Position numbers and translations under genes: made by a program. From IMG/VR virus record IMGVR_UViG_640427134_000001, positions 29,660 through 93,659 of that record: DNA of 64,000 nucleotides; one strand, given 5' to 3'. This DNA is from a virus. Shown here one piece after another: positions 5,009 to 50,461 of this stretch (positions are counted from its first letter, which is position 1; each line of letters begins with the position of its first letter). The notes below the pieces were generated by a model, which saw only the letters and a program-made list of their open reading frames with translations, had not been told where the DNA came from and searched no databases.

Positions 5009-6817
5009 TTAAAGTGATGGTAAATTGCGTAATTCAATTAACATGCACTGATTGCGATAACGTGGGATTGGGTTAGCTTCTGCTGCCATACGGTTATAAA
5101 CCGCTACGTCTTTTTCAAACGCATTAGCTGATGATGCTAGAACCATAGTTGGAACTGCCACAGTACCTACGAATGGTGCTTTGGCTGGTGTAGATGAACG
5201 TGGCACCATTAACGCATAGCCGCCTTGTGTTAATTCATCTTCGTTAAACACGCCCATAGAGGCTGGCACGTAATAAACGTTTGCACCGGTGTTTAACTGA
5301 CCAATACGGTAGATTGAGTATTGATCGCCGTACTGCTCGCCGGTTGGGGTGTAGTCATCACGGCTCATAGCTTCAAAGAACGCTGCACCACGGTCTGACA
5401 CGTATAAGTCATACTGACCAATAGCTGTGTTAGTGATGGTTGATAGTGAAGTACGCGCTTTACCTAATACCACACGGATATTTGAGTAAAGATCCGTTAG
5501 ATTGATATGAGTCAAGCCAGCGATATCAGCGTCGAATACTTTAACGTGCTGCTCTTGGTTAGCTAGACACTGGTTAACCGCACCACGTAATAAGCGGCCG
5601 TTTTGCTCAAAGTTGTATTTGTTGATAAAGATCATTTGAGCCGCTGCGTACCAGTTGATACCTAGCTCATTTTGTAGCTGGGTGATCGCGTCGATAGTAG
5701 CGGTAGAACGGGCACGGCTTGGGTAAGCGTAAACGCCATAGTAGCTAAACTGCATATCGTGGCTTGGGGCACGTAAAATGTAGTCGCCTTTTTCGTCTTT
5801 ACGCTCATAGTCAAAGATTAACTCAACTTCTACTTCGTCTGCTTTAGGGGTAGCACCGTCGGTAGTGTCAAAAGTAACTTCAACTGTATGGTTGTCAAGG
5901 TCTGCAACTGCTGACTTAACGATAAAGGTATCAGCGCCTAAAGTAACCGGCTCAAGCGGCTGTAATGTGCTCTTACCGCCAAATGTTGGGTGGCTGCGAT
6001 GGTTATCGTTAGCAACTTCAACGCCGCGAACTTTAATACTTACACGCCCGCCTAAGAACGGAGCTTTGATAGAGTCTTTATCTACAACAAACTTGGTAGT
6101 TTTGTTGTCGCGAATTTCTTTGGTGTACGCAACATGAGACTCAAGGGTAAATTTACCGTCGCCTGCATCTTCCATAACCAATAGATGACGGTTGTCAAAA
6201 TATGGTAAGCCTGCTTTTTCACCGTCGATTAATTCACCACGGCGCATAACGCCCATATCCATGCCAGCGGTACCTTCACCGGCAACGATTGGAACTTCGT
6301 TTGAGCCAGTTGGGTTTGGTAGCATTGAGATTAATGGTAGGCTGTTTGCGATACCCATAGTAATAACAACTTGTACGGCAGCTGGTACTACTGATAAGGC
6401 TTCATGGTGGCTAAATGATAGGCTATCGAACGCTGGGTCATTATCATCGCCGCGATGTGCGTTTTCAGTAAATGCGGTAGCAGCTGATAAAGCTGATTGC
6501 ACAACTTCTACTGGTGGCATATCGCCGCCGTTACGACGTTGATACTCGGCAATACCATCACGTAAGCCGTCGAATACTGCTTGCTTGCCAGCATTGGTAG
6601 CTGCAATGTTTTGAGCCTCTAACAGTTTTTGCAATGACTCAGGAATTGCCTGTAATCCCATTTCACGATCATGCGAGTTAGCAGCGATCATTGAGTCAAA
6701 TTGTGCAACGTCAGATTGTTTGGCATCAAACTTAGCAAATTCACGCATAAACTGGCGTGTTTTTGTAAGCTCATTAGAAACAACGGATAAATGTTGTTTG
6801 GCTTGGTCTTTATTCAT
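5009..6817 (-). CDS. Major capsid protein, P1 gp23-like
   Basis: 602 aa. Segments GIAEYQRRNGGDMPPVEVVQSALS, GAAFFEAM and PAKAPFVGTVAVP match recalled P1 gp23 segments. Strong late promoter upstream. Confidence 0.8.
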   Translation of the reverse strand: MNKDQAKQHLSVVSNELTKTRQFMREFAKFDAKQSDVAQFDSMIAANSHDREMGLQAIPESLQKLLEAQNIAATNAGKQAVFDGLRDGIAEYQRRNGGDMPPVEVVQSALSAATAFTENAHRGDDNDPAFDSLSFSHHEALSVVPAAVQVVITMGIANSLPLISMLPNPTGSNEVPIVAGEGTAGMDMGVMRRGELIDGEKAGLPYFDNRHLLVMEDAGDGKFTLESHVAYTKEIRDNKTTKFVVDKDSIKAPFLGGRVSIKVRGVEVANDNHRSHPTFGGKSTLQPLEPVTLGADTFIVKSAVADLDNHTVEVTFDTTDGATPKADEVEVELIFDYERKDEKGDYILRAPSHDMQFSYYGVYAYPSRARSTATIDAITQLQNELGINWYAAAQMIFINKYNFEQNGRLLRGAVNQCLANQEQHVKVFDADIAGLTHINLTDLYSNIRVVLGKARTSLSTITNTAIGQYDLYVSDRGAAFFEAMSRDDYTPTGEQYGDQYSIYRIGQLNTGANVYYVPASMGVFNEDELTQGGYALMVPRSSTPAKAPFVGTVAVPTMVLASSANAFEKDVAVYNRMAAEANPIPRYRNQCMLIELRNLPSL

Positions 6818-6867
6818 AAGAATATTCCTATCGTCATTGAAAAAAATTGAACATATCCGATAGGGTT

Positions 6868-6907
6868 ATATTAAGACTCGCCTAGACACCCTTTTTAGGG
6901 GTGTTCC
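6868..6907 (-). promoter_or_regulatory. Putative late promoter (GGAACAC-N27-TAATAT) for the capsid operon
   Basis: GTGTTCC at 6901-6907 and ATATTA at 6868-6873 on +; the same spacing recurs at three other late operons. Confidence 0.7.
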
Positions 6908-6913
6908 AATAGC

Positions 6914-6937
6914 AAAAAACCGCCGTTTTAGGCGGTT
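6914..6937 (-). terminator. Intrinsic terminator
   Basis: AACCGCC-N6-GGCGGTT stem followed by a U-run on the minus strand. Confidence 0.7.
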
Positions 6938-7014
6938 AATGAGTGTTGCTGGCAGAGGTTTACATCAAGAAGGTTAGAAAAAACACCAGTACAAGGTTAA
7001 ATGTGTCTAAAACC

Positions 7015-7581
7015 TTACTTGTACGGTACTTCCACATCCTCAATTTCGCTTTCATCGAACGCATCTAAATATTCCAGGTCAAATCTTTGGTTTAGAAGGT
7101 ACCTATGGCCATGACTCACCAACAATGAATTACCAACCACGCCCACGCACTCATGGTATTCCTTATGGTTGTTTAATAAGAAGCAAAACAGGTCGCCTTT
7201 TTTGGGGTTCCAGTCTGGTCTCATTCTTATGCGATCATCGCCTTCCAAATCAATATCGTAAGGCTCAATCAATACCATTGAGCTAAACTGCTCTGGGGTG
7301 ATAAACATGCCGCTATCGTGCATAGGCCCGCCTAAGCTATCTAGTAGCACCACCATAGCGTGCCCTAATGGCTCATAGTCTATTGAATGTTCATCACTGT
7401 CACTTACTGTACCAAGGCCAGCCCATGACAAGTCTGAACGCTCATAATCATCATCATTAACTGTTAGCACTTTACGTCTAAATACAAACGTCGGGATCGT
7501 TGATTGATTGCGCAGCGTGATAATACGCGTACTTAGCGCCTGGCCGTCTGTGACTAGCTTATTTTCAATTTTAAGCGTCAT
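7015..7581 (-). CDS. Putative head-tail/baseplate protein (possibly P1 gp24-like)
   Basis: Adjacent to the gp25-like gene; only weak motif similarity. Confidence 0.45.
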   Translation of the reverse strand: MTLKIENKLVTDGQALSTRIITLRNQSTIPTFVFRRKVLTVNDDDYERSDLSWAGLGTVSDSDEHSIDYEPLGHAMVVLLDSLGGPMHDSGMFITPEQFSSMVLIEPYDIDLEGDDRIRMRPDWNPKKGDLFCFLLNNHKEYHECVGVVGNSLLVSHGHRYLLNQRFDLEYLDAFDESEIEDVEVPYK

Positions 7582-8780
7582 CGCTCACCCCATTTCTTTT
7601 CAAAATCTTGAATATCTGCTTGGTATAGCTGCTTGTACCTGTCTGGTATGCCTTTTTGCTGTAACTGGCTTTGTGCATACTTATAGCTGCTTAATTCAGC
7701 CTTTGTTGGCTCATGCGGGCGTGCTTTAGCTTGCCGTTTTTGTTCAGTGCGTACTTTTTGCTCGGCCTGTTTAACCGCTTGCTTAATAACCTTCGACCAA
7801 TGTAAACGGCCATTCCAGTTGTTGAGTGCTTGAGTCTGTTTGGCTGCTTCTCGTTTGACTTGCTGGCTTGTGCGTCTATGCGATTTAACCTGGTTTTCAG
7901 CCATGGCAATATCAGCCTTGGCATAGTCTCTTACCTGGCTTAGCATCATGCCGCTTGTTAAGTGCTTCATTACTCGCAAGGCGTGTTTGCAAGCCACCCC
8001 TGTTAAATTAGGGTTACGTGTTGATGGATAGCGGTTCTCGTCTATTCCATAGTTGTACTTACCAACGGTGGCAATATAGCGATACCAAAATTGATGACGG
8101 CCACAGTCACAGTCAAATCTTATCTTGCCGTGCAATATGCTATTTCTTACCTCTGCCAAACTAGACGGCTTAGTTCTTAGCAGCAATCCAGGGTAATCTA
8201 GCAGCTGTACTGTTACCTTGTGGTTAGCAACCTTACTTTCTGGCCCTGAATTGGTTAAGAAAAACAAGGTATTGCCTTGTCTCTTATAAACCATGGCCAT
8301 GTAAATTTGCTTGTTGGCTCGCTGGATATCAACGGGCCTTGAGTTGTTGATCACGTCTTGAGGGGTTATACCTCCAGCAAACTTTTTAGCCGCCTTCTTA
8401 ACGTTTGCCAGGTATGCGTCTAATACACTTGCGTCCAATACCTGCATTAAGCTTTCGTTACGCTTGGTATTGCCTAGCGTAAATTCCAATAGCTCGCTTG
8501 CTGATATGCCGGCTAAGCTTTTAGCACTGGCCACCAGGGATTGTAATTGCTGGCTAGTTAGCCTTTCACCGCCCTTGATATCCCTGATCGTATCTTTTAG
8601 ATACCTGTTATGCTGGCTGGCAAATTTGCCCTGCTCGCTGGCCTGCCTGGCTGTATCAATACGCCAACGCCTAAGCTCTTCAAGGCTCATATTGTTTACA
8701 AGCCTATCCTGCCGGCTTACTGGGTTATCCTGATTTTTTGGGCTGTTATTGTTAAACCAGTCCGTATCTAAGTTATCCAT
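7578..8780 (-). CDS. P1 gp25-like tail protein with Cys/His (SWIM-like) motif
   Basis: G(K/R)IRFDCDCGRHQFWYRYIAT...RNPNLTGVACKH closely matches the recalled P1 gp25 motif. Confidence 0.78.
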   Translation of the reverse strand: MDNLDTDWFNNNSPKNQDNPVSRQDRLVNNMSLEELRRWRIDTARQASEQGKFASQHNRYLKDTIRDIKGGERLTSQQLQSLVASAKSLAGISASELLEFTLGNTKRNESLMQVLDASVLDAYLANVKKAAKKFAGGITPQDVINNSRPVDIQRANKQIYMAMVYKRQGNTLFFLTNSGPESKVANHKVTVQLLDYPGLLLRTKPSSLAEVRNSILHGKIRFDCDCGRHQFWYRYIATVGKYNYGIDENRYPSTRNPNLTGVACKHALRVMKHLTSGMMLSQVRDYAKADIAMAENQVKSHRRTSQQVKREAAKQTQALNNWNGRLHWSKVIKQAVKQAEQKVRTEQKRQAKARPHEPTKAELSSYKYAQSQLQQKGIPDRYKQLYQADIQDFEKKWGER

Positions 8781-9071
8781 TTACGCCCCTTTTAAATACT
8801 TGCGTTTGATTGCTATTAAATCCCTAGCGACTGGCAAAAAGATAATGTCTTTTGGCAATGGCTGGCCAATCCTATTCGTGCCAGCGCATACCATAACAAC
8901 GTCTGCATAACTGCGATCCCTGTACGCTCTAAACGCAATTAACGTGGGGTCGTGAATTTCATCACTACCCACTTTCCAGGTTATTAGCCTATCGGTGCGG
9001 CCACGTCGATAAAGCAAATCAACGTGGTCACGTATCGCATTGTGATAAATGTTTAATATGTTCTCAATCAT
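8781..9071 (-). CDS. P1 gp26-like / LysM-like baseplate protein
   Basis: DEIHDPTLIAFRAY...VVMVCAG...LP pattern; next to gp25-like gene as in P1. Confidence 0.68.
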   Translation of the reverse strand: MIENILNIYHNAIRDHVDLLYRRGRTDRLITWKVGSDEIHDPTLIAFRAYRDRSYADVVMVCAGTNRIGQPLPKDIIFLPVARDLIAIKRKYLKGA

Positions 9072-9073: not shown

Positions 9074-10405
9074 TTAAGCTGTCCGTAACCAGTAAGCCAC
9101 AACGATTGAAGGCTGCACGTTATTGTGCGGCTTATCTTTCCACCCTGTTTCCGATGTGGGTAAAGGAATCATCTTGCCTTGGGCGCCACTCGCGTAACCT
9201 GTACCACCTCCGCCGTGCCTACGTGCCCCGTGATAACCTGCCTCCCTGACTTTAAGCGCGGTTGAGGGCATCTCTTCGGCTACCAGCTTATGCTCATAAG
9301 CACCAAATGATGATTTAAGCGTCTTGGTCCATGCCGGATCAGCTGCTTTGGTTGATATACCAACAAGCGTTTTACCTTCTGCGAACCTGGCCCACGTGCC
9401 ATAACCTAAAGCAGCCTTAACCTCTGCACTGCTTTTATAGTTATTGGTTGTGGTATAGATAGAACCGATTGGCAGTTCGGTAACTTTGCTTTGAGCCGCC
9501 ACAAGCTGTTGCTGCAATTGCTCAATCTGCTTTTTCATGCCAGCCAGGTCAGACTCTCTTAGGTATTGGCTATGAGGGTGTGCTGCACTGGTATGGCCTG
9601 ATAAGTCTGTTTTTTTAGCATACTGGGTATGAGGGTCGGCTGCCTTGGTATGGTTGCTAAGATCGGTTGATACCTTCGTTATATCTTTACTGTGTTGTGT
9701 CAGCTGTCCACCATGCTGGGTTAGCGTGCCAGCGTGTGTATCAACTAGCTTTTTAAGTGCGTCGTGTAGCTTAACGTGTGCGTCATGTACTGTTTTAAGC
9801 GTGTATTGCGGGTGAGGGTTAGCAGCTGCAATGTGCTTGCTTAAATCACCCGATGCCGTATTGATATTTTGGCCTAGCTTATCCACCTTCTTATCAAGCT
9901 GTGAAAACTTATCGTTATTAATATATTGAGGGTGTGGATTGGCTGCGCCTACATGATCTTCCATCATCTTAACGACAATAGCGGCGTCAGGATCGGTTGA
10001 AACCGTTATGTTCTCAACGTCGATTTCGCCTAGCGATAAGCCAAAACTACCAACAAAGGTAACGTTTGCATATACGGTAAATAAAGGGGTGTTGCTGGCT
10101 GCTACTGCAAACAGCGTATTATCGCTTGTAAGCAATCCGATCTCGTGAATAACTCTTGATTGAATGCTGTTTAAGCTAACACTAAATCGCAAAGACTTAC
10201 TATCCTTCTCAATACCACTTGTCACGATATCAGAACGCATAGCCTCTGTTCTAATACGTGTTTCCTTACCAGTTGGGACGTACTTCGACGTGCCAGCGAC
10301 AAGCGTTTTTAAAGACAAGCTTATACCTTGCTTTTGAGCGTCTAGCACTGCTAAACGCCCTGCGTCGGTTATTTTAAATATAATTGGGTTGGGTTTATTC
10401 GCCAT
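9074..10405 (-). CDS. Tail fibre / short fibre protein
   Basis: N-terminal ITDAGRLA...EIGL....LFAV baseplate-attachment domain, four HxxAAxPHxQY repeats, and a C-terminal PIGSIY...GTW...HNNVQP collar-like domain. Confidence 0.8.
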   Translation of the reverse strand: MANKPNPIIFKITDAGRLAVLDAQKQGISLSLKTLVAGTSKYVPTGKETRIRTEAMRSDIVTSGIEKDSKSLRFSVSLNSIQSRVIHEIGLLTSDNTLFAVAASNTPLFTVYANVTFVGSFGLSLGEIDVENITVSTDPDAAIVVKMMEDHVGAANPHPQYINNDKFSQLDKKVDKLGQNINTASGDLSKHIAAANPHPQYTLKTVHDAHVKLHDALKKLVDTHAGTLTQHGGQLTQHSKDITKVSTDLSNHTKAADPHTQYAKKTDLSGHTSAAHPHSQYLRESDLAGMKKQIEQLQQQLVAAQSKVTELPIGSIYTTTNNYKSSAEVKAALGYGTWARFAEGKTLVGISTKAADPAWTKTLKSSFGAYEHKLVAEEMPSTALKVREAGYHGARRHGGGGTGYASGAQGKMIPLPTSETGWKDKPHNNVQPSIVVAYWLRTA

Positions 10406-10440: not shown

Positions 10441-10479
10441 AGTTTAACCACTTAGGCTGGCAAGTATGCCATGTGTTCC
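10441..10479 (-). promoter_or_regulatory. Putative late promoter (GGAACAC-N26-TAAACT) for the fibre-gp26-gp25 operon
   Basis: GTGTTCC 10473-10479 and AGTTTA 10441-10446 on +. Confidence 0.72.
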
Positions 10480-10489: not shown

Positions 10490-12055
10490 CTACTCACCAA
10501 GCAATTCATCGGCCGCTTGCTTTAATAGGTCTAATTCATCGCTTTCAGTGCTACCGATATTTAGGTCCTCGTAACTTTCAACCGGCGCATAGCTTATGTT
10601 CTCCATAAAGCCAAACGCTATGGTATCTGCAATATCCGGTGACTTAATGCCCTTTTTGAGCATGTCTTTTTTGGACATCATGCACCAACGCGCCTTTTCA
10701 TCAAAGTAATACGGTAAGCGCGTCATCTGCTCTTCTAAGTTAGTCATTACCTGGTACATTTTTTTAACCTTATCGCTTACACTGAAATAGCCTTTTTCTA
10801 CTGCCTTAGCCATTGATACATAAGCGTGGCTGCGTTTGTTCATGTAGTAGCGTTTGAGCGTGTTGTTAAAGCAAGGCGAACCCCAATGCACTTCATCAAA
10901 ATACACCCCATCAGCTTTTAACGACTGCGTTAACCCCATACCAGCGCCTAGGGGATCAATCACCAAGGTCGCGCCTGGATAATCGCTCATTACATCATTG
11001 ATTTTGGCTTTAAGCGTATTGATATTAGCTCTATTACTAAACAGCGGTATATCAAGTAAATGTACGTGCCTCTCAATACGGCCCTTGATCATCTTATCAA
11101 CGACTTGCATTACCGATATCACGCTACTATCGCGGCCAACGTCGCCGCCCACGTCCACGGCTACGATGATACCCCACTTGTCACCCTCTTCAATCACGCA
11201 AGGCTGCTGCTTCATATTCTCGTAGTCAGTGCGCGTTAATAGGTACTCACCTTTAAGCTCTGGGAACTTACCGCGAATACGAATTAGATACCCTGGGCTG
11301 TTTCGACTGCCATACTGATACAAAGCCTCGATCAGCTTGTCCTTACTAACGATCGGTGACATTTCACCGTTAAATTCAAGCGCGGTCCACTTACCGCCGT
11401 TATGGTGGCTTAGCTTATGGTGTGTGTCGTAGAAGAAACCGGTGTTTTTAGCCGGCTGGCTAGTTAATACGGCCCTGTTGTTTTCATGGGTTAATGCGCC
11501 AATGGCAACTTCCATTACCGCGTCATCAATACCACAAGCTTCATCAGCCCATACCATGTAGTGATCGCCGTGTTGACCGGCAATGTTAGTTGGTTGGTGT
11601 TTAGGTGCTGTCTTAGCAAAAACGAACCAGGTATCTTTAAAACCCTTGATGTAAATCTTTTCTGCCAGCACGACAACATAATCAGCAAGCCAGCCTAGCG
11701 CCTTGTTATTGCGTAGGCGCTGCAAACAGATATTAATCTCTTTCCAAACAACCGTTCTAAGCTGGCCAATTTGAGGGGCGGTAAACAGCATTACCGACTC
11801 GGGGTAAAATAAAAGGTGCCATAAGGCGATAATGCCGGCCGAGCGCGATTTGCCAGTGCCATGACCAGATGCAACGCTTGTACGGCTGCCAGGGACAACA
11901 ATAGATTTAAACAATAGCTCTTGCTGCCAGGTTACTGCTTGTCCGGCCTGTATTGTCATATCTAAAGCTTCAACGGCAAAGCGCGTAATGTCATAGCGAT
12001 ACCTTTGGCATACCTCACGCCATTCAGGTAACAGCATTAAATCATCTAACATCAA
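10490..12055 (-). CDS. terL: Terminase large subunit, P1 PacB-like
   Basis: SVASGHGTGKS Walker A, VWADEACG Walker B, VDVGGDVGRDSS nuclease motif and C-terminal SPDIADT; N-terminus WREVCQRYRYD matches PacB as recalled. Confidence 0.92.
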   Translation of the reverse strand: MMLDDLMLLPEWREVCQRYRYDITRFAVEALDMTIQAGQAVTWQQELLFKSIVVPGSRTSVASGHGTGKSRSAGIIALWHLLFYPESVMLFTAPQIGQLRTVVWKEINICLQRLRNNKALGWLADYVVVLAEKIYIKGFKDTWFVFAKTAPKHQPTNIAGQHGDHYMVWADEACGIDDAVMEVAIGALTHENNRAVLTSQPAKNTGFFYDTHHKLSHHNGGKWTALEFNGEMSPIVSKDKLIEALYQYGSRNSPGYLIRIRGKFPELKGEYLLTRTDYENMKQQPCVIEEGDKWGIIVAVDVGGDVGRDSSVISVMQVVDKMIKGRIERHVHLLDIPLFSNRANINTLKAKINDVMSDYPGATLVIDPLGAGMGLTQSLKADGVYFDEVHWGSPCFNNTLKRYYMNKRSHAYVSMAKAVEKGYFSVSDKVKKMYQVMTNLEEQMTRLPYYFDEKARWCMMSKKDMLKKGIKSPDIADTIAFGFMENISYAPVESYEDLNIGSTESDELDLLKQAADELLGE

Positions 12056-12063: not shown

Positions 12064-12588
12064 TTAAATACTAAAAGGCATTAAACCATAGTCGCTATCC
12101 TTGTCGTTTGAGCTATCATCAAGCGTTATTGGTGCGGTTGACATAAGATAGCCACCGTGTATCTTTCTAGCCGCCCAAATAGCCAATAAAACGGCCATGT
12201 GGCCATTGGTAATGCCCATTGAGTCAAAGTCTAATACTTTTCCTCGTTCGTCCATTTTGCGCATCTGAATAACGTCTTTTGGCTCATACCGTCTTAACGC
12301 ATCCTCAATCAAAATTAAGCCTGATCGCTGGGCCTCGTTATACACAGCCATAACCTCTGCCATTTGCTCGGACTCGTTAAAACTCATATCCCAGTAATCA
12401 AAGATCATTGGCGTATCAGTGACTACCACAGCATTATCTTTTGGTACCGGCTGCTCTTTCCACGTGGCTTGTTTTTTAAGCATAACCCTGCCTGATGCTG
12501 GCAAGACAACGCCTAATACGCGTATAGCCTCGCCAGCATAAGCGGCCGCCCTTGCGTCAATAACAACCGGCTTAACCTGGTCATTCAT
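12064..12588 (-). CDS. Hypothetical phage morphogenesis protein
   Basis: 174-aa ORF coupled between the PmgC-like gene and terL. Confidence 0.55.
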   Translation of the reverse strand: MNDQVKPVVIDARAAAYAGEAIRVLGVVLPASGRVMLKKQATWKEQPVPKDNAVVVTDTPMIFDYWDMSFNESEQMAEVMAVYNEAQRSGLILIEDALRRYEPKDVIQMRKMDERGKVLDFDSMGITNGHMAVLLAIWAARKIHGGYLMSTAPITLDDSSNDKDSDYGLMPFSI

Positions 12589-13591
12589 CGCCGGCAGCCC
12601 CTTTCTTGGCCACGTTAGTTTCAGTGATTACACCCGTATCAGGGTCAATAGCAACTCTGACTTCATGGTCTGAATCTTCATCATCAACATTGGCTTCGAT
12701 AACCAGGCTATTAAGCTTCTCATAGCTATCACGGTTCCCCTCAACTGGCTTATCCCCTGGAATCGGAACTCTTGGCGGGTTAATAGCTGGGCCTTCTGGG
12801 TTTTCAGGATCAAGCGGTATCGTTGGCTTCTCTGGATCATATTCAGGGTTTGGCCGTGTCGGTAAGCTCTCTTGTGGCTCTCCAGTATCGGTCACTTCAT
12901 CCCAATCACCACCCAATCCCACAAACTCAGGAATAGCACCAACGATCGTACAATCAACCGTTACGATGAATAGGTTTTTAAGGTCAATAGATGCGTTATC
13001 AGGGTAAAGGCTGTTTTCTAATACCCTAAAATTCCAATCATCTTTAATCGCCTTACCCTCAAGAACCCCAACGTCATAAGACACTGGGAATGTTCTTTTC
13101 TCTTCGTGTTTCCAAAAGCTGGCAAACTGCCTGGCAATATCCGACGCGCTATGGGGATCGGGGCTAAAAAAGGCAATTTGACAACGATAAGCCACGGGGA
13201 CCGATCGCATTTGCACCACTCGCTTTAATGGATCTTGAGGTAGCACCACGTTTACCCAATACGGTAGGCCGCCTACCTGGTCATATTCAGGCGGCGTTTC
13301 AATCGGACTAATGGCCGTCATGAGGACCGGTAAGTAAACGGACGAGCCGGACTCTTTTTTGTAACCTGCGTTTTTTGCGTTATCGTTTTCCTGGATAGCT
13401 TTTAACATGCTCTCCACATCATCGACCATTGAGGTTTTGGCCACAACAATAGCCGCTTCTAGCCTGCGTCGTTTCCAGTCATAAACGCCTTGAGTGGTTG
13501 GCATGCACCACTGCCTAAAGTCTCTTAGATTCATGGCCCATGCCAGCTGCAAGCACTCAAGCGGTGATAGTAGTCGTTTTGTCTTGCTCAT
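12581..13591 (-). CDS. P1 PmgC-like neck/tail-terminator protein with Pro-rich C-terminus
   Basis: LPVLMTAISP and PVAYRCQIAFFSPD...A..FASF resemble recalled PmgC segments. Confidence 0.5.
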   Translation of the reverse strand: MSKTKRLLSPLECLQLAWAMNLRDFRQWCMPTTQGVYDWKRRRLEAAIVVAKTSMVDDVESMLKAIQENDNAKNAGYKKESGSSVYLPVLMTAISPIETPPEYDQVGGLPYWVNVVLPQDPLKRVVQMRSVPVAYRCQIAFFSPDPHSASDIARQFASFWKHEEKRTFPVSYDVGVLEGKAIKDDWNFRVLENSLYPDNASIDLKNLFIVTVDCTIVGAIPEFVGLGGDWDEVTDTGEPQESLPTRPNPEYDPEKPTIPLDPENPEGPAINPPRVPIPGDKPVEGNRDSYEKLNSLVIEANVDDEDSDHEVRVAIDPDTGVITETNVAKKGAAGDE

Positions 13592-14585: not shown

Positions 14586-14624
14586 AGTTTAAGGGGTTAA
14601 GCTGTTTTGCCTTTGGGGTGTTCC
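14586..14624 (-). promoter_or_regulatory. Putative late promoter (GGAACAC-N26-TAAACT) for the protease-terL operon
   Basis: GTGTTCC 14618-14624 and AGTTTA 14586-14591 on +. Confidence 0.72.
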
Positions 14625-14999
14625 TTTAGGCGAAAAAAAAGGCCGCCAGGGAACGGGGCAGCCAAAAAAAATACAAGGATCAATAGAAATAACACGTCAT
14701 CGTAAAAACGGGGTAGAACCGCCCCGAAATTGTCGGAGACTCAACGCTCCAAGAGAATACGACAATGAAAACACGAGGCTATACCCCTGAAATGAAAGAG
14801 CGAGCCGTCCGTATGCTAATTGAAGCTAAAGCCGATTACCCATCCACCTGCTCAGCCATCAAAGCTATAGCACCAAAGATAGGTTGCACACCTGAGACCC
14901 TACGATCATGGCATAAAAAGCACGTAGATAAAACTGATGTATGCTGAAAAAAACGGACAAAAATATTTGGTAAACTAGAATCCTAAACAGGAGTTTACC

Positions 15000-15296: not shown

Positions 15297-15310
15297 CCAA
15301 GTACGCCTTT

Positions 15311-23507: not shown

Positions 23508-23516
23508 CGCAAATCC

Positions 23517-39010: not shown

Positions 39011-39021
39011 AAGGTTGAGTT

Positions 39022-39905: not shown

Positions 39906-39916
39906 GATATTATCTT

Positions 39917-40759: not shown

Positions 40760-40762
40760 AAA

Positions 40763-41665: not shown

Positions 41666-41684
41666 TACATTCAACTCACCGACC

Positions 41685-41707
41685 AAACCGCCCAAGTGGC
41701 GGTTTTT
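41685..41707 (+). terminator. Intrinsic terminator / cassette-boundary hairpin
   Basis: AAACCGCC-CAAGT-GGCGGTTTTT. Confidence 0.75.
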
Positions 41708-41794
41708 CATCCTCTTAAAGTTAATGACTTGCCAGCAGTACATTTGCTAAAATTAAAAAACCCATCGAATCATGAATCAAAAAAGAGGACACAT

Positions 41795-42319
41795 ATGCCT
41801 AAGAGGGCTGAGCAAAGTCTAGAGAAAACTATATTTAACAGTCGCTGGCTGTTAGCTCCATTTTATTTAGGGCTTATAATAGGAATTATTCTTCTTTTCA
41901 TAAAATTTTTTCAAAAAATCTGGTATATCACTACGCATGTATTCACTGCTAGCGAAGCCGATGTAATTGTTGGCACGTTAGTTTTAATAGATATAGCACT
42001 AGTGGCCAGCTTATTACTTATTATTGTATTTAGTGGGTACGAAATATTTGTTTCAAAAATTGATACAGGAGACCATGAAGATCGTCCGGGCTGGATGGGT
42101 ACCATTGATTTCTCTGGCTTAAAACTAAAGGTCATTAGTGCCATTGTTGCTATTTCTGCAATTGACCTTCTCAAATCATTTATGAATATACCTGACCAGA
42201 TAAGTGATGGGGACGCTAATAGACTAATGTGGAAGGTCGTTATACATATGACATTCGTTTTATCTGGACTATTGTTTGCTTTAATGGATAAGATTGCTGG
42301 TGATACTAAAAAGCACTAA
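41795..42319 (+). CDS. yqhA: UPF0114 / TIGR00645 membrane protein
   Basis: SRWLLAPFYLGL, SGYE.FVS, LK.KV..AIVAISAI.LL and W...IH motifs; probable ATG at 41795. Confidence 0.88.
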   Translation: MPKRAEQSLEKTIFNSRWLLAPFYLGLIIGIILLFIKFFQKIWYITTHVFTASEADVIVGTLVLIDIALVASLLLIIVFSGYEIFVSKIDTGDHEDRPGWMGTIDFSGLKLKVISAIVAISAIDLLKSFMNIPDQISDGDANRLMWKVVIHMTFVLSGLLFALMDKIAGDTKKH

Positions 42320-42353
42320 ATAAAACATTTGGATGAAGATCTATAAGTTAACT

Positions 42354-42378
42354 AAACCGCCATAGTGGCGGTTTTTTT
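42354..42378 (+). terminator. Intrinsic terminator / cassette-boundary hairpin
   Basis: AAACCGCC-ATAGT-GGCGGTTTTTTT. Confidence 0.78.
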
Positions 42379-42508
42379 GTGCTCAATACCAAACTAATAG
42401 TTCTTTCAGTAATGATAATTAGTCATAAAAACACGCTCTGTTATTTAATACACTGGCAACAGCTGATTGGCCCTATAATCTCATTATCATACATTTAGGA
42501 GTTGCAAA

Positions 42509-43960
42509 GTGTTTTCTAGTTATAGAGAAGATAAATATTTTCTAAGCAGGGCTTTACCTGTCTTAGTGGGACTGATTACAGTTTATAGTCTGTTAATACT
42601 TTTATCAGTACAAATCAACGCTGTAGCACTAGCCATTTTGTTGATGGTTATTTTTTGCCTCATCAACATCCCTGTTGCAGTTGCAATCGTTTTAGCTGCA
42701 TTACTTGGCGGTTTACACGCAGGTATGGATTTTCCGGCAATTTTAGAAAGTTTAAACGATAATATATTGGGTGGCGCTCAGGTTGGCATGACCTATATTA
42801 TGGTTGGGGCTTTCGCAGTTGCTTTAGCTAGAAGTGGTATTCTTGATTGGTTGGCACAGAAAATGACCCACCGCCTAAACAGGGATAGCGTACAAGTACG
42901 AAACCAAGTTAAGTGGACTTTATTTTTTATCTTTATCGTCGCCTCCCTGTTATCGCAAAATTTAATACCTGTCCATATCGCTTTTATACCCGTATTAATC
43001 CCTCCCCTACTAAATATGATGAATAAGCTAAAAATAGATAGACGAGCAGTCGCCTGTATTTTGGCCTGTGGTATCAGCTCATCATACTTACTATTGCCAT
43101 TCGGTTTTGGCGCTATATATCTCAATGAAATACTATTAGAGAATATAAATACTGTAGGAGGTGGTTTAGGACTAGAAGCAACTGCTGGCATGGCACCTAA
43201 GGCTATGTTTTTCCCAGTTATGGGTATACTAGCTGGTATGCTCGTTGCTGTATTTATTAGTTATCGTAAGCCACGCGAGTATGCTTTAAATTTAGATACC
43301 ATGAACACAGAAGAATACAAAGTTGTTAGTGCTATTAACTGGCAACCATTATTGATGACTTTATTAGCTGTAGTAGCGGTATTACTTTTTCAGGTGTTTT
43401 TTGATTCTCTGTTTATAGGTGCAATGATTGGCTTTATGATTCTTGGTTTTTCAGGTATTTATAGTTGGAAAGGGCAAGATGATGTATTCACTCAAGGCAT
43501 TCGATTAATGGCTGAAATTGCTGTCATTATTACTATTGCCTCTGGATTTGCAGGTGTTTTGACTGCCACAGGGGATATCGACCCCCTTGTCGCCTCTGCA
43601 ACAGAGTTCTTTGGTAATAATCAGTTGCTCGGTGCTGCAATAATGCTGTTAGTTGGACTGTTTATCACAATCGGGTTTGGTGACTCTTTTGCTTCAGTGC
43701 CTATACTAGCACCTATATACATCCCTTTAGCTGTTGCGCTGGGCTTTTCACCACTTGCCACTATAGCTTTATTAGGAGCATCAGCCGCACTAGGTGATGC
43801 CGGATCGCCCGCTTCAACAATTACTCTTGGTGCTACTGCTGGTCTTAATGCAGATGGACAGCACGACCATGTTAAAGACAGTGTCATTCCAACTTTTTTA
43901 CATGCAAATATAGGTATGTTGCTTTTCACTTGGATTGCAGCTGTTTGGATTTTAAATTAA
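42509..43960 (+). CDS. Na+/H+ antiporter-family (YuiF-like) transporter
   Basis: About 12 TM segments; SQNLIPVHIAFIP, GDAGSPAS and GQHDH..D.V.PTF.H motifs. Confidence 0.85.
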   Translation: MFSSYREDKYFLSRALPVLVGLITVYSLLILLSVQINAVALAILLMVIFCLINIPVAVAIVLAALLGGLHAGMDFPAILESLNDNILGGAQVGMTYIMVGAFAVALARSGILDWLAQKMTHRLNRDSVQVRNQVKWTLFFIFIVASLLSQNLIPVHIAFIPVLIPPLLNMMNKLKIDRRAVACILACGISSSYLLLPFGFGAIYLNEILLENINTVGGGLGLEATAGMAPKAMFFPVMGILAGMLVAVFISYRKPREYALNLDTMNTEEYKVVSAINWQPLLMTLLAVVAVLLFQVFFDSLFIGAMIGFMILGFSGIYSWKGQDDVFTQGIRLMAEIAVIITIASGFAGVLTATGDIDPLVASATEFFGNNQLLGAAIMLLVGLFITIGFGDSFASVPILAPIYIPLAVALGFSPLATIALLGASAALGDAGSPASTITLGATAGLNADGQHDHVKDSVIPTFLHANIGMLLFTWIAAVWILN

Positions 43961-45055: not shown

Positions 45056-45213
45056 TGAAGGCATTAGCTACAGCTCTATTAGCAGCCATTGTAGGTGGCT
45101 GCTCAACCCATGTAGCGCTACTTGCGCTGGACAAAGAACAAAGCAATCAGCAGCAGTACATCGATAACTACGACTACGAAATGAGTCAAATGGAGGCAAA
45201 AGATTATGAGTAA
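45052..45213 (+). CDS. Small putative lipoprotein (53 aa; absent from the ORF track)
   Basis: MMKALATALLAAIVGGC... lipobox-like; ATGA overlap upstream and overlap with the YqaJ start. Confidence 0.55.
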   Translation: MMKALATALLAAIVGGCSTHVALLALDKEQSNQQQYIDNYDYEMSQMEAKDYE

Positions 45214-46222
45214 TTTAGCAATCTTAGAAAGCTTTAAAAAGTACGCATCAAACCTTGCGCTTAGCACCAAAAACATGAGCCGTGAAGATTGGTTAACGGC
45301 TCGCCAAACCGGTATCGGTGGTTCTGATGTCAGCGCAATTATGGGTGTTAACCCCTACGCTACTGCCTACGATGTTTATGTTAGCAAAACGCAGCCAGTT
45401 GAAGATACCGCCGGCGAACCTGCTTACTGGGGCACCACCTTAGAACCAGTAGTTGCTACTGAGTTTGCCAAGCGTAACGACCTTAAGATCCAAAACGTTA
45501 ACTTTATGATGCGTCATCCGGTCCATAAATTTGCAGTGGCCAACATTGACCGCGCTGTTATCAATCCAGAGATTAGCGGCAACGTTAGATTTAAAGATGG
45601 CAAGCTTACTACCGATACTATCTTAGAGATTAAGACAGCATCTGAGTACGTCGCTAAAGACTGGGGGGATGAAGAGTCTGATCAAGTACCTGATCAGTAT
45701 ATGTGTCAAGCACAGTGGTATATGGGCGTGACTGATACCCAAGTTTGCTACATGGCCGTGTTAATCGGTGGTAACAAGTACCGTCAGTATCGCATCGAGC
45801 GCAATCAAGAGTTAATCGATGTGTTGTTTGAAGTGGCCGAAGATTTTTGGGTTAACAATGTTTTGGTTGGGGTGGCACCTGAAGCGACTACTCTACAGAA
45901 CGCCAAAGACAAATATCCAAAGCATACGCCAGATGCGGTACTTGATGTATCAATAGAGGACGAAGCGGTCGAAGTCTTTAACGAATTCGTTGAGCTTAAA
46001 GAAGCTGAAAAGCTACTTAAAAAGCAGATTGAAGCCGCTCAAACCAAGCTTATTTGCACGATTGGTGACAATGAAGCGCTGGCGATTGATGGTGATATTG
46101 CAGTGACATATAAGGCTCAGGTCAGTAATCGATTTGATAGCAATAGCTTTAAAAAAGATATGCCTGAACTTGCTAAGCAATACACCAAACAATCCATAAG
46201 CCGAATCATGAGGGTTAAGTGA
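45206..46222 (+). CDS. YqaJ-like recombination exonuclease
   Basis: WL..R..GIGGSD, G..LEP.VA, ANIDR, LEIKT and Y..Q.Q.YM motifs. Confidence 0.92.
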   Translation: MSNLAILESFKKYASNLALSTKNMSREDWLTARQTGIGGSDVSAIMGVNPYATAYDVYVSKTQPVEDTAGEPAYWGTTLEPVVATEFAKRNDLKIQNVNFMMRHPVHKFAVANIDRAVINPEISGNVRFKDGKLTTDTILEIKTASEYVAKDWGDEESDQVPDQYMCQAQWYMGVTDTQVCYMAVLIGGNKYRQYRIERNQELIDVLFEVAEDFWVNNVLVGVAPEATTLQNAKDKYPKHTPDAVLDVSIEDEAVEVFNEFVELKEAEKLLKKQIEAAQTKLICTIGDNEALAIDGDIAVTYKAQVSNRFDSNSFKKDMPELAKQYTKQSISRIMRVK

Positions 46223-46587
46223 TGAAGATTGAAGCTATCCCAAAAGAAGATTTAATCATTATAGCCAACTGTATGCTTGCACGAATAAAAGAGCTTGAAG
46301 CTGAAAACAAAAGAATTTCACAGCAATGGGCCGATAGATACCATCCATTGTCATTCGTTGGGACGTTGGCAGGCCAAGTGTTTTTAGAAAATAAAGACGC
46401 AGCCCGTCAGGCCTTAAATAAGTTTTATGAAATATATGACAATCAAGATATTTGGTGTTTAGACGTTGATGCAATTGACATGGCTAAGGGCGCAAGAATG
46501 GTTCTGGGCGATGCAATTACAGAAACCGAATATCAAGAATTAACAAAACTAGAAAGCCAATTAAATAAGGAACAAAACAATGAATAA
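46219..46587 (+). CDS. Hypothetical phage protein
   Basis: Coupled between YqaJ and RecT. Confidence 0.6.
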   Translation: MMKIEAIPKEDLIIIANCMLARIKELEAENKRISQQWADRYHPLSFVGTLAGQVFLENKDAARQALNKFYEIYDNQDIWCLDVDAIDMAKGARMVLGDAITETEYQELTKLESQLNKEQNNE

Positions 46588-47548
46588 CTTACCTCAACAA
46601 ACACAACCATCTGGTTTTATCAATCCTCAAAACTATCAAGAAGCCTGGCAGTTTAGCGAAATGTTAGCAGCATCTGAGATGGTGCCCAAGAACTTCAAAG
46701 GTAAACCGGCTGATATTTTAATCGCCATGCAAATGGGTAGCGAGATTGGCTTAAAACCCCTGCAATCACTGCAAAATATCGCTGTAGTTAATGGCCGTCC
46801 TACCATCTGGGGTGACGCGGTTGTAGCTATCTGCCAAAGCTCAGGGATGCTTGAAGATATTACTGAAGAAGTCACCGATGAATATGCAACGGTCACTGTT
46901 AAGCGAATTGGCCAAGAGCCACACAGCGTAACTTTTAGTATGCAAGACGCTAAAAAAGCAGGGTTGGCTGGTAAACAAGGTCCTTGGACTCAGTACCCCA
47001 AGCGCATGATGAAAAACCGCGCACGTGCTTACGCTCTACGTGACAAGTTCGCTGACGTGCTAAGTGGCTTTGGGATCACTGAAGAAGAGAAAGACCGTGT
47101 GATTGACGTTACTCCAGCCAAGCCGGGTAAGACCAAAAACGCCGGTGCCTCTGCCCTACTTGAGCGTGTCAAAGCAAAGGCGGCAACAGTTGAAGCACCG
47201 GCTATTGAGTATTTTGATACCACCCAATTAATTAACTTCATTGCCCAAGCTGAAAACTTAGAGCAAATTAATGGTATCGGCAAAGAAATTAAAGCCATGT
47301 CTGAAAATGCAGATATCAACATCAAAAATTATGACTTGGCAGCTCTACGTAAAACTTGGAAAGATAAAAAGCTGGAGCTTGAGTACGCCAATCTTATGAA
47401 TAACATCAAATCGTGCCAGTCATTAGATGATATTGAGCGTATGCGCGGTGTGATTGAAGACAAGTCTGGTGACTTTGCACAGCCTGATTTACAGCTACTT
47501 AGCGACACGCTAGATATGGTTGCTGAAGAAATTGGTGCTGAGGGTTAA
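46580..47548 (+). CDS. recT: RecT/Bet-family single-strand annealing protein
   Basis: VPK.F.GKP.D..IA.Q.G.E.GL.P.Q.LQ.I.V.NGRP and W..YP.RM...RA motifs. Confidence 0.88.
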   Translation: MNNLPQQTQPSGFINPQNYQEAWQFSEMLAASEMVPKNFKGKPADILIAMQMGSEIGLKPLQSLQNIAVVNGRPTIWGDAVVAICQSSGMLEDITEEVTDEYATVTVKRIGQEPHSVTFSMQDAKKAGLAGKQGPWTQYPKRMMKNRARAYALRDKFADVLSGFGITEEEKDRVIDVTPAKPGKTKNAGASALLERVKAKAATVEAPAIEYFDTTQLINFIAQAENLEQINGIGKEIKAMSENADINIKNYDLAALRKTWKDKKLELEYANLMNNIKSCQSLDDIERMRGVIEDKSGDFAQPDLQLLSDTLDMVAEEIGAEG

Positions 47549-48430: not shown

Positions 48431-48757
48431 ATGGACTTATTAACCAACCGTCGATTTGCTAATGCATCTGAATTTGAATTGATAGCACTCGCATTAGATG
48501 AAGGTTATGACTCACTAGCATATGCCCTTGCCTGCCGCTTAGAGCGAAACTTAAATCCTGAAGAGTCCGGACAACTCAGAAAGCTGCAAGATGAAAATCA
48601 TGATCTATATTATGAGATAGATGAGTTAGAGTTTAGGGTTTGTGCGCTCGAACAAGAACTTGCGAGTATGGCGGACAATGAAGAGCGTCTAAAGGGGCTA
48701 GTCAGTCGAGCCAGCCGAGCTGTTAACAGCAGCTTGGCTTTGTTTAAGGAGGATTGA
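48431..48757 (+). CDS. Coiled-coil hypothetical phage protein
   Basis: GGAGG Shine-Dalgarno; heptad pattern. Confidence 0.6.
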   Translation: MDLLTNRRFANASEFELIALALDEGYDSLAYALACRLERNLNPEESGQLRKLQDENHDLYYEIDELEFRVCALEQELASMADNEERLKGLVSRASRAVNSSLALFKED

Positions 48758-48768
48758 TATGACTAACG

Positions 48769-48975
48769 ATGGAGTTAAAAGAATTAAGAAAGATGCGCAA
48801 GCAGTGTTTGGTTCGAATGGGTAGCATGATGACATATAAACATAGATCAAAAAACATCACTTGCACGGTCTTAGATACAAGCGATAGTTACGTGATTTAT
48901 CAATATGTGCATGATGGCTTGATAGTGACAAACAAAACAAAGATTGATGACTTTTTAGATGAATGGGAGGTATAA
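48769..48975 (+). CDS. Hypothetical phage protein
   Basis: 68-aa ORF in operon. Confidence 0.5.
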   Translation: MELKELRKMRKQCLVRMGSMMTYKHRSKNITCTVLDTSDSYVIYQYVHDGLIVTNKTKIDDFLDEWEV

Positions 48976-48977
48976 GG

Positions 48978-49193
48978 ATGAGCGTAGCTGGAAGGCGAAC
49001 CGAGGCATTAGTTAACACGCCTAAACAAGTTAACTGTATTTTTGCCATACACTTTGACGATGAAAATGACGTTCGTTATCAGGAAATTGCAAAACTTATT
49101 CTTAATAAAGAGTCTTGGAATAACGGCAACTTGGTGACTGCACTACATTGTGACAGCCTTGATAATATGATTAACGTAATTGAAGGCAAATAA
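48978..49193 (+). CDS. Hypothetical phage protein
   Basis: AAGG Shine-Dalgarno before ATG 48978. Confidence 0.5.
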   Translation: MSVAGRRTEALVNTPKQVNCIFAIHFDDENDVRYQEIAKLILNKESWNNGNLVTALHCDSLDNMINVIEGK

Positions 49194-49194
49194 T

Positions 49195-49830
49195 ATGACA
49201 AACAAGGCAATCGATTTATTTTGGCATAACGACAGTAAGGCTCACAGCCCTTTTACTGAATATGAAATCAGGAAAAACGTGGAAACCGGTAAGTACCTAA
49301 TTAAATACTGGAACTATAACGAGGTTACTCCAACTACTGAAAAAGCAGTTGAGCCACCGCAAACTGCAACTGGATTTATCAGCCTTGAAGGTGCTAAAAA
49401 TTGGGCACAAAATCATTTTGAGGAGAAACTACAAAATTGGTTCAAAGCCTCAACTGAGCGTGAGTTATTAACTAATAGCATACAAAGTCTTGTTGATGCA
49501 TGCCACTCACGAGCGGCAGCAAATGGCTGGTGGACTGATCTCTCAACTGGTAAACCTCTAACTCGCAACAAAGGTGAGATGATGATGCTAATAGTCAGTG
49601 AGATTGCTGAAGCAATGGAAGGTCACCGCAAGGGCCTGAAAGATGATCACTTGCCAGCCTACGGTATGGAAGATGTCGAATTTGCTGACGCTCTTATTCG
49701 TATATTTGATTATGCCGGTGGGCACAACTTGAAATTAGCCAACGCGTTTGTTGATAAGCTTGATTATAACGATAACCGCGTTGATCACAAAATTGAAAAC
49801 CGTAAAAAAGACGGTGGCAAAAAATATTAA
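49195..49830 (+). CDS. MazG-like NTP pyrophosphohydrolase fused to an unknown N-terminal domain
   Basis: H.....GWW, L..SEIAEAMEG.RK, E.ADALIRIFD and K..YN..R motifs in the C-terminal half. Confidence 0.78.
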   Translation: MTNKAIDLFWHNDSKAHSPFTEYEIRKNVETGKYLIKYWNYNEVTPTTEKAVEPPQTATGFISLEGAKNWAQNHFEEKLQNWFKASTERELLTNSIQSLVDACHSRAAANGWWTDLSTGKPLTRNKGEMMMLIVSEIAEAMEGHRKGLKDDHLPAYGMEDVEFADALIRIFDYAGGHNLKLANAFVDKLDYNDNRVDHKIENRKKDGGKKY

Positions 49831-49839
49831 GGAGTTGAA

Positions 49840-50103
49840 ATGATTGCACGTAAACCATGGGCTAAATACACGGCTCAAGAGATTGAACAAATGCGCATAG
49901 CAGTGATGTACGCACCGCCAGAGGCACCATTCACTCCAGAGTATGCAGCGGCCTACCTGGGCAAGTCTTCAAGCACGTTACAATACCTACGATCGCATAA
50001 GCCAAAAGCAATTCGATATAGTAAGATTGGGGGGCATATTAGATATCTCAAAAAGTATTTAGACGAATATATTGCTAATGGCGAACACCATCAGACAGCT
50101 TAA
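49840..50103 (+). CDS. Excisionase-like wHTH protein
   Basis: TPEYAAAYLG.S.STL.......IRY.KIGG.IRY.K..LDEYI pattern; last gene before att. Confidence 0.75.
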   Translation: MIARKPWAKYTAQEIEQMRIAVMYAPPEAPFTPEYAAAYLGKSSSTLQYLRSHKPKAIRYSKIGGHIRYLKKYLDEYIANGEHHQTA

Positions 50104-50120
50104 ATGTATGAAGCCATATG

Positions 50121-50150
50121 AAAAAAGTCAGCGTACTGCTGGCTTTTTTT
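50121..50150 (+). terminator. Intrinsic terminator
   Basis: AAAAAAGTCAGC-GTACT-GCTGGCTTTTTTT. Confidence 0.75.
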
Positions 50151-50412
50151 GTATGCCTAACTAATGCATTATTCAACCGAACCTTCATAATCGCACACCT
50201 GTGCCACCGCAAATCTAAGTTATAAAATCATTGTTGCTCATCGTTGTTTGCTGTTTTATATACTTTTTATGTACTCGAAATTTGTTGTTACATATTGCTT
50301 ATTGTTGTCTTACCCATACAATATTTTATTTAAACCTATGTAAATAAAGGGATTAAAGCCAAAATATATAGCTCGTCATTGATAATTGTTTTTGATTGTT
50401 GATGTGATTAAC

Positions 50413-50461
50413 AGGACTCATAATCCTTTGGTCGTAGGTTCAAGTCCTACTGGGCCCACCA
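50413..50461 (+). repeat. att core: 3' half of tRNA-Ile(CAU) (anticodon arm to CCA), not a complete tRNA
   Basis: AGGA-CTCATAA-TCCT anticodon arm, GTAGG-TTCAAGT-CCTAC T-arm and GGGCCCACCA end; no D-arm or 5' acceptor strand upstream. Confidence 0.9.

Follow-up and report, generated by a model that had tools for sequence, protein, structure and literature searches.

Acinetobacter phage vB_AbaM_ABMM1 (ABMM1; OQ471969), isolated in 2023, is a temperate myovirus that forms lysogens and integrates (PMC10345192); the authors of that study made no mention of a link to phage P1. In 2026, ABMM1 and the Xanthomonas phage GYRb1 (Rb1; PQ569993) were placed beside D6 and Punavirus in both proteomic and TerL trees (PMC13478112). 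GYRb1 was reported to carry CI/CII-like regulators; no integrase was predicted and the phage was predicted to be virulent (PMC13478112). P1-like regions integrated in chromosomes were described by Pfeifer and Rocha: they are close relatives of P1 that keep its replication and partition genes, and the route by which they integrated is unexplained (PMC10879196). Here we analyze a stretch of 64,000 nucleotides ("the window") corresponding to bases 29660-93659 of the IMG/VR provirus record IMGVR_UViG_640427134_000001 (111,412 bp). The stretch very likely holds most of a single, apparently complete temperate myovirus prophage of Psychrobacter, about 80.3 kb long, that joins the ABMM1 lineage as a new member at the level of genus and constitutes no unprecedented hybrid. 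Unless otherwise specified, coordinates are those of the window.

No close relative was found at the nucleotide level: when 47 kb of the window were compared by megablast with 50,697 phage records, the only match was a tRNA-like one of 52 nt, to Lak phages. Placement of the prophage relies on a ranking of protein identities combined with the published tree (PMC13478112). Among the same records, the large terminase (TerL) matches those of ABMM1 (53-54%), Rb1 (35%) and Punavirus/D6 (29-34%), all others being far weaker, and the capsid protein matches only ABMM1 (30%) and Rb1 (25%). GYRb1, whose host belongs to another order, is a more distant relative than ABMM1. A whole-proteome tblastn comparison with ABMM1 identified 31 homologues, 25-66% identical and arranged in collinear blocks; the portal, a DdrB-like protein and a baseplate protein are 46%, 66% and 45% identical, respectively. 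The likeness extends to the layout of the genome. Both phages have an S24-type cI gene divergent from cro and accompanied by a CII-like gene, an arm-type tyrosine integrase, a nuclease gene followed by a helix-turn-helix (HTH) protein gene ahead of the late genes (ABMM1 also has RusA), and a GGAAC box upstream of the late operons. Both come from Moraxellaceae hosts; virion production and lysogeny were demonstrated for ABMM1 (PMC10345192) and are predicted for the Psychrobacter prophage.

The preliminary description of this DNA had portrayed a phage in which P1-like morphogenesis genes are run by a lambdoid, tRNA-integrating early region, a combination said to occur in no characterized phage. 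As a whole, the description was largely right. The modular reading holds, distantly P1-related morphogenesis and packaging genes coexisting with lambda-style immunity, replication and recombination genes and a tRNA attachment (att) site. The claim of novelty does not, as ABMM1, an isolated temperate myovirus (PMC10345192), shares the 31 proteins and has S24 cI, Cro and CII-like genes and an arm-type integrase, and the position of the lineage next to D6 and Punavirus was already published (PMC13478112). Rather than an unprecedented hybrid, the prophage is thus a member of an existing, little-studied lineage. Lack of any nucleotide-level similarity to ABMM1 implies that the two belong to different genera at least, and we regard genus-level status among the ABMM1-like integrative relatives of P1 as probable. 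The two phages also differ in host genus (Acinetobacter for ABMM1), in cargo (a 10-kb giant gene in ABMM1 versus a type I restriction-modification system, LrgAB and NhaC in the prophage), and in their replication and recombination genes: DUF1376 and AAA_24 in ABMM1 versus an O-like gene with iterons and YqaJ/RecT in the prophage. The latter differences are indicative of mosaic exchange. In this lineage the P1-type virion module and the layout of the cI/cro/cII switch are conserved, and the remaining early cassettes are exchanged.

The record from which the window was taken begins exactly at the ATG of the integrase gene; its other end, in a redoxin gene, coincides with a gene boundary. Such ends identify it as a computational cut-out. 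Its first gene encodes the sole tyrosine recombinase of the record, a 425-aa protein with Arm-DNA-bind_3 and Phage_integrase (PF00589) domains. ARAGORN found no complete tRNA gene in the window or in the whole record, and a search with Rfam gave a borderline tRNA match at 50349-50458. This segment overlaps the right attachment site:

50413-50461, plus strand: attR, a 49-nt duplicate of the tRNA-Met 3' part (anticodon stem through CCA)

The tRNA attachment site of the preliminary description thus exists as a 3' tRNA-Met fragment, not as a complete tRNA gene. The 49-nt segment is present once in the entire record and is directly followed by a host hairpin terminator (50474-50507). The opposite junction was found in four independent contigs that encode an identical integrase; in all of them, the integrase gene lies 169 nt past an intact tRNA-Met(CAT), and in the two with sufficient upstream sequence the tRNA is preceded by malic enzyme, BLUF and poly(A) polymerase-family genes. 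An arrangement identical in kind, with an intact tRNA-Met before the integrase, is seen in the metagenome-assembled genome Psychrobacter sp. UBA3962. Finally, an empty attB site is present in P. sanguinis CCUG 59771, where an intact tRNA-Met has the same 60-nt upstream flank as attL and is followed by the same terminator that lies beside attR in the window.

Taken together, the attL, attR and attB sequences indicate that the prophage covers everything in the window to the left of position 50461 plus about 29.9 kb beyond the window's left end, adding up to approximately 80.3 kb from the tRNA-Met to position 50461. The element had been thought to span positions 5009-50461. The right end coincides exactly with the end of attR; the left end does not hold, since tail genes fill positions 1-4919 and the prophage continues for the additional 29.9 kb. 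In four unrelated metagenomes, contigs aligned to 48500-51500 extend over the phage side of attR and stop no more than about 85 nt past the repeat; their ends fit the proposed right boundary, these sequences being Logan unitigs, which break at the tRNA repeat. Since the sole integrase and the sole attL/attR pair enclose both the late and the early blocks, the two belong to one att-bounded element and not to two different ones. No P1 plasmid-lifestyle genes lie within it.

The left arm of the phage, between the tRNA-Met and the integrase gene and outside the record, has a terminator hairpin of its own right after the rebuilt tRNA. This hairpin resembles the native terminator behind a P. aquimaris tRNA-Met, a likeness suggestive of the capture by attP of a host tRNA 3' end along with its terminator.

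The virion, packaging and tail genes of the window are all on the minus strand:

1-1050, minus strand: 5' part (N-terminal 350 aa) of a tail-fibre-like gene for a 1211-aa protein, continuing past the window's left end (phrog_4757/7765/2137; weak matches to P1 S repeats)
1207-4419, minus strand: tail-fibre module (phrog_14345/5283, a weak phrog_1036 N-terminus, phrog_4950, phrog_4176)
5009-6817, minus strand: major capsid protein of the P1 gp23 family (phrog_1014; hhalign; 30% identical to ABMM1 Gp08)
7015-7581, minus strand: 188-aa virion-module protein in the position of P1 gene 7 (phrog_4597/25079; P1 gp7 belongs to another family, phrog_1906)
7578-8780, minus strand: P1 gp25-like tail protein (phrog_1722; 37% to ABMM1 Gp05)
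8781-9071, minus strand: P1 gp26-like baseplate protein (phrog_1269, 5e-22; P1 gp26 is in the same PHROG, 1e-41)
9074-10405, minus strand: tail-collar/fibre protein (phrog_4545/3737/20878; 29% to ABMM1 Gp03)
10490-12055, minus strand: large terminase of the PacB (headful) type (tblastn to P1 PacB)
12064-13591, minus strand: two proteins of 174 aa and 336 aa, conserved in the lineage and encoded upstream of TerL (homologues in ABMM1: Gp01 and Gp85)
13606-14538, minus strand: P1 Pro-like head-processing protein (39% to ABMM1 Gp84)
19775-22726, minus strand: tape-measure protein with a tail-lysozyme domain (phrog_6922/9570; Phage_lysozyme2; partial match to ABMM1 Gp72)

All open reading frames (ORFs) were compared with P1 (AF234172) by tblastn; shared PHROG profiles and, for the capsid protein, hhalign were also used. 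Nine proteins have tblastn matches: PacB, Pro, gp25, PmgM, DdrB, DarA, Prt, BplA and gp21. The terminase is 31% identical to P1 PacB over 512 aa (1e-71), the head-processing protein 37% identical to Pro over 163 aa (1e-20), and the product of 7578-8780 35% identical to gp25 over 151 aa (4e-25). To the left of the window, DdrB (45%), DarA (32%), BplA (26%), the portal Prt (24% over 463 aa) and gp21 (59% over 49 aa) have their counterparts. Five further proteins, gp23, gp26, gp22 (sheath), gp6 and Tub, are linked to P1 through common PHROGs and not by tblastn; for the last three, the families lie left of the window (phrog_1036, phrog_1390 and, weakly, phrog_1842). The capsid protein is a case in point. 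It has no direct BLAST match to P1; it matches phrog_1014 at 1e-94 over residues 8-562 of 567, the same PHROG that P1 gp23 matches at 8.5e-255, and hhalign of a 13-sequence capsid profile against P1 gp23 gave a probability of 96.9% (E 2e-10; 450 columns, 21% identity). The gp23-like capsid, Pro-like protease, PacB-like terminase and gp25- and gp26-like proteins named in the preliminary description are therefore all borne out. A PmgC-like protein had been named as well, and this assignment is not supported: PHROG searches of the complete record for the PmgC (phrog_1851) and PacA families gave nothing at E≤1.

Local gene orders of P1 (26-25 and 23...22-21) are retained, and the morphogenesis genes are truly, if distantly, of P1 lineage. 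The tape-measure protein is predicted to be the functional analogue of P1 Sit. On the other side, the prophage differs from P1 in having no C1/immI, RepA/oriR, ParAB/parS, Cre/lox, Lpa, PacA or PmgC, and in being integrated in a tRNA gene whereas P1 lives as a plasmid. In the tail-fibre module, the products of 1207-1599 and 3166-4419 bracket two tail-fibre-family proteins of 197 aa and 325 aa. The two bracketing products have in common an N-terminus of about 90 aa, for which matches were found in ABMM1 Gp13 and in the first part of the P1-type sheath family; the full-length sheath gene is located elsewhere, left of the window. As for the two proteins upstream of TerL, their homologues Gp01 and Gp85 flank the ends of the ABMM1 genome.

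The early region is organized around a divergent pair of repressor genes:

36409-37119, minus strand: lambda P-like candidate for a helicase loader; 37029 is probably its true start (protein language-model neighbours)
36986-37870, minus strand: O-like replication initiator with a putative internal origin (Phage_rep_O; phrog_678)
38373-38717, minus strand: CII-like regulator (phrog_725, 1.4e-15; 25% to ABMM1 Gp58)
38720-38923, minus strand: Cro-like repressor (phrog_409; weak P22_Cro match)
38924-39021, no strand: divergent promoter/operator region, the 98 nt between cI and cro, with four palindrome copies
39022-39681, plus strand: cI repressor of the SOS-inducible type, HTH plus S24 autopeptidase (Peptidase_S24, HTH_3, Phage_CI_repr; phrog_4)
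45206-46222, plus strand: YqaJ-type exonuclease (PF09588, 1e-37)
46580-47548, plus strand: probable RecT-family annealase (Pfam RecT at 5e-4, under the cut-off; language-model neighbours in RecT clusters)
49840-50103, plus strand: Xis-like HTH_17 protein (Pfam HTH_17), the last phage gene before attR

The four palindromes in the cI-cro gap are copies of a 16-bp sequence, GTTTAAT-NN-ATTAAAC, or of its permuted form. Four AAATTTTGGGA iterons occupy positions 37455-37529, inside the O-like gene and beside an AT-rich tract (37382-37452). The S24-type cI, cro, cII, O with iterons, YqaJ and Xis-like genes had all been recognized in the preliminary description, and the domain and family matches listed above agree with each of these assignments, the P22_Cro match being weak (24.4 bits, below the Pfam cut-off of 30.2 bits). 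Two others fare less well. The P-like ORF matched no Pfam or PHROG family and gave no significant PDB sequence match; its language-model neighbours, the Phage_lambda_P/G39P helicase-loader clusters, provide a lead only. The RecT-like protein likewise gave no significant PDB sequence match, and its assignment draws on the sub-threshold Pfam score and on its language-model neighbours. Among phages, the nearest relatives of these cassettes are not in ABMM1: YqaJ is closest to a Pseudoalteromonas phage protein (60%) and the O-like protein to a Psychrobacter siphovirus protein (29%).

The resemblance to lambda and P22 thus comprises the divergent S24 cI/cro genes, whose operators are repeated palindromes, a cII gene, an O gene that contains its own iterons, a candidate P-like loader, an exonuclease paired with a probable annealase, and xis and int genes expected to border attP. 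On the cI side, the operon runs through cargo to YqaJ, the probable RecT and the HTH_17 Xis-like gene. Circularization would place xis and int on either side of attP, both on one strand. Differences are the integrase, which is P4-type and lies at the end of the prophage opposite to xis, and the virion, a P1-type myovirus versus the siphovirus of lambda. Moreover, no early-operon protein matched an N or Q antiterminator family, several small ORFs being without assignment; late control in the prophage apparently relies on an activator and a promoter box. P1 lifestyle functions are missing, as judged from the lack of tblastn matches (E≤1e-3, P1 against all ORFs) to C1, RepA, ParA/B or Cre and from the absence of ParB_N and Rep3_N domains in the record. 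The Psychrobacter prophage and the integrated P1-like regions of Pfeifer and Rocha (PMC10879196) are different phenomena.

The rightward early operon ends with a nuclease gene, an HTH protein gene and a gene for a 295-aa protein:

34997-35443, minus strand: VRR-NUC nuclease, P1 PmgM-like (tblastn to P1 PmgM, 34% over 143 aa)
34186-34875, minus strand: HTH protein, candidate late-gene activator (HTH_3; phrog_7396; 31% to ABMM1 Gp68)
33299-34186, minus strand: 295-aa protein, last gene before the cargo block (phrog_7533 only)

A GGAACAC(CCC) box is found 57-90 nt upstream of nine late-operon start codons. These nine, out of 12 GGAACAC copies in the record, are on the coding strand, intergenic, and placed before late-operon starts, where they usually read GGAACACCCC. 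Four are in the window (6901-6907, 10473-10479, 14618-14624 and 22795-22801) and five to its left. The heptamer is not enriched window-wide (6 observed versus 4.6 expected), hence only its positions are informative. In ABMM1, TGGAAC(T/C) occupies the same relative position before 10 of the 11 late operons inspected. The late box recognized by P1 Lpa, ACAAGTGACT, is different and unrelated, and a search of the complete record for the Lpa family (phrog_1704) found nothing at E≤1. Lack of Lpa, together with the existence in ABMM1 of a positional homologue (Gp68, which also follows a nuclease gene), suggests that the HTH protein encoded at 34186-34875 is probably the late activator, one that is neither P1 Lpa nor lambda Q.

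These elements can be assembled into a plausible cycle. The phage would insert into the 3' end of the tRNA-Met gene through the action of its P4-type, arm-binding tyrosine integrase. Lysogeny would be maintained by the S24 cI protein binding at the palindromic operators opposite cro-cII, and induction by the SOS response would involve RecA-mediated autocleavage of the repressor. Replication is predicted to start from the iterons inside the O-like gene, with recombination carried out by YqaJ and the probable RecT; excision would require integrase and the HTH_17 Xis-like protein, whose genes are expected to flank attP in the circle. The HTH protein may then switch on the late operons at their GGAACAC(CCC) boxes, allowing synthesis of a virion and packaging machinery whose genes can be traced to the deep P1 (Punavirus)/D6/ABMM1/GYRb1 lineage.

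A number of points weigh against reading the locus as one complete temperate phage of this lineage. The attL of this exact copy is deduced from other contigs with an identical integrase, the record being cut at the integrase start codon, and a search for the attP junction (right arm-core-left arm pattern) in IMG/VR contigs yielded no match. Induction, virion production and excision are all read from the DNA sequence, and position and conservation are what designates the late activator. The P1 homologues are only distantly related (21-45% identity), and the genes stand in a rearranged order compared with P1. Furthermore, the integrase, replication and recombination genes of ABMM1 have no detectable similarity to those of the prophage, implying that the shared architecture consists in part of analogous modules and not of orthologues.

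One could imagine, accordingly, two adjacent elements, a defective P1-like remnant contributing the late genes and a separate lambdoid prophage contributing the early region and the att site. The affinities of YqaJ and the O-like protein with unrelated phages would fit such a scheme, as would the presence of an insertion sequence (IS) element and of cargo islands between the late and early blocks. Nevertheless, we consider it highly improbable. Besides the single integrase and att pair enclosing both blocks, no second capsid or terminase set is present; the early-right operon passes directly to the HTH gene and the late genes without a change of strand; operons in all parts of the element have the same late-promoter box in front of them; and both types of module are found in the 75.7 kb ABMM1 genome, which is packaged as such. 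Just as improbable is a P1-type phage-plasmid that became chromosomal secondarily and still depends on plasmid functions, like the few Enterobacterial P1-like elements described (PMC10879196). The precedent of those integrated regions and the P1-related virion genes speak for this origin. However, none of RepA, ParA/ParB, C1, Cre/lox and Lpa is detectable, and the locus has a dedicated arm-type integrase, a Xis-like gene, clean tRNA attL and attR sites and an empty attB in a conspecific strain. In addition, the reported integrated P1 elements are close P1 relatives with P1 replication/partition genes, at variance with a prophage only 21-45% identical to P1.

An unlikely alternative, and one compatible with a single prophage of the ABMM1 lineage, is that the prophage is cryptic, having lost the ability to be induced or to form particles because of IS or cargo insertions or of undetected point defects. 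In favour of this, an IS3-family element and about 5 kb of foreign DNA separate two late operons, roughly 16 kb of cargo breaks up the early-to-late transition, and no attP junction was matched in IMG/VR contigs. Against this, all recognizable essential genes have intact, full-length reading frames, and the record is 100% complete according to CheckV; the accessory insert is intergenic, leaving the neighbouring late-promoter boxes at 14618 and 22795 intact. Near-identical copies exist in several strains and metagenomes, and the copy in CCUG 59771 occupies a different chromosomal site, which argues for recent mobility.

The plasmid lifestyle is not a necessary companion of P1-type virion modules, which are paired, in Moraxellaceae, with ordinary integrase/cI control, the replication and recombination cassettes being exchanged among relatives. 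These observations have a bearing on how phage-plasmids evolve, where so far only recent P1-to-chromosome conversions lacking a dedicated integrase have been described (PMC10879196). The assignments are useful for annotating Psychrobacter, Moraxella and Acinetobacter prophages, whose capsids all read "hypothetical", and are relevant to the safety assessment of ABMM1-like phages for therapy. More tentatively, the prophage, ABMM1 and dozens of Moraxellaceae homologues might form a deep, integrase-bearing and cI/Cro-controlled sister group of the plasmid-borne Punavirus, with their own GGAAC and HTH late system in place of Lpa and with freely exchangeable replication and recombination modules. 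Should this be true, the group would be a natural outgroup for asking whether the plasmid lifestyle of P1 derives from an integrative ancestor, and its late-promoter regulon, no description of which was found in the literature consulted, would be defined.

The host can be assigned to Psychrobacter, being P. sanguinis or a species close to it. Identity of the capsid protein is 99% with that of Psychrobacter sp. UBA3962, 96% with that of P. sanguinis CCUG 59771 and 55% with that of P. aquimaris. Capsid homologues are widespread in Moraxellaceae: they form 85 clusters, all labelled hypothetical, in Psychrobacter, Moraxella, Faucicola and Acinetobacter, and some of them are on Mb-scale contigs.

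The relative in CCUG 59771 (contigs C27 and C130) is 89-96% identical and is not at the tRNA-Met site. At its left junction, non-tRNA sequence precedes the core; the right junction keeps only 23 nt of core (GGATTCATAATCCTTTGGTCGTA). This configuration suggests that the CCUG 59771 relative sits at a secondary site or in a tandem array, and the junctions suggest that the crossover takes place in the anticodon stem-loop. Its left flank was not found in two other Psychrobacter genomes.

The remaining features of the prophage are an accessory insert and blocks of cargo:

14628-19802, no strand: strain-specific accessory insert of low GC, absent from the CCUG 59771 relative
22809-25025, both strands: LrgB and LrgA (minus) and a divergent LysR regulator (plus) (Pfam)
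25035-33162, minus strand: type I restriction-modification system (Pfam)
39678-43960, plus strand: cargo after cI, namely a 75-aa ORF, a 280-aa ORF (39917-40759), DUF3037, a UPF0114 membrane protein and an NhaC-type Na+/H+ antiporter (Pfam)

The restriction-modification system comprises hsdM (30676-33162), hsdS (29381-30676), an Mrr-like gene (28416-29357) and hsdR (25035-28373); together with the transporters, it constitutes the lysogenic-conversion cargo of the prophage. In the block after cI, the 280-aa ORF has no Pfam match at E≤0.01, and the DUF3037 gene directly follows it. The accessory insert contains an IS3-family element (14934-16211), a DUF2310 gene (16608-17408), a gene for a 255-aa phrog_7688 protein and small ORFs. 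The IS3-family element is 1278 bp long, with ORFs of 98 aa and 284 aa, and is 100% identical to a copy in the host flank (54104-55381; contig 83763-85040), in a region of IS sequences (53542-56106) made of nested or inverted partial copies. The DUF2310 Zn-ribbon gene is about 97-99% identical to genes on Acinetobacter and Psychrobacter plasmids, indicating recent exchange between plasmids and the prophage.

To the right of approximately position 50,500, the genes look like host genes: they encode a weakly DUF7379-like protein, McrC, IS3 and IS66 copies, an RTX protein, an adhesin and a redoxin. The ORF at 50541-51692 was considered as a possible second integrase, as would occur in tandem elements, and was rejected; its only Pfam match is the weak one to DUF7379 and the next gene is McrC, assigning it to the host flank. 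Further along, in a segment running from 59331 to the end of the window at 64000 and beyond (record positions 88990-110227), lie the genes for a 2343-aa RTX-repeat protein and for a Calx-beta/cadherin adhesin of 3396 aa. Within the adhesin gene, a 1104-bp unit is repeated in tandem about 4.4 times, at 98% identity.

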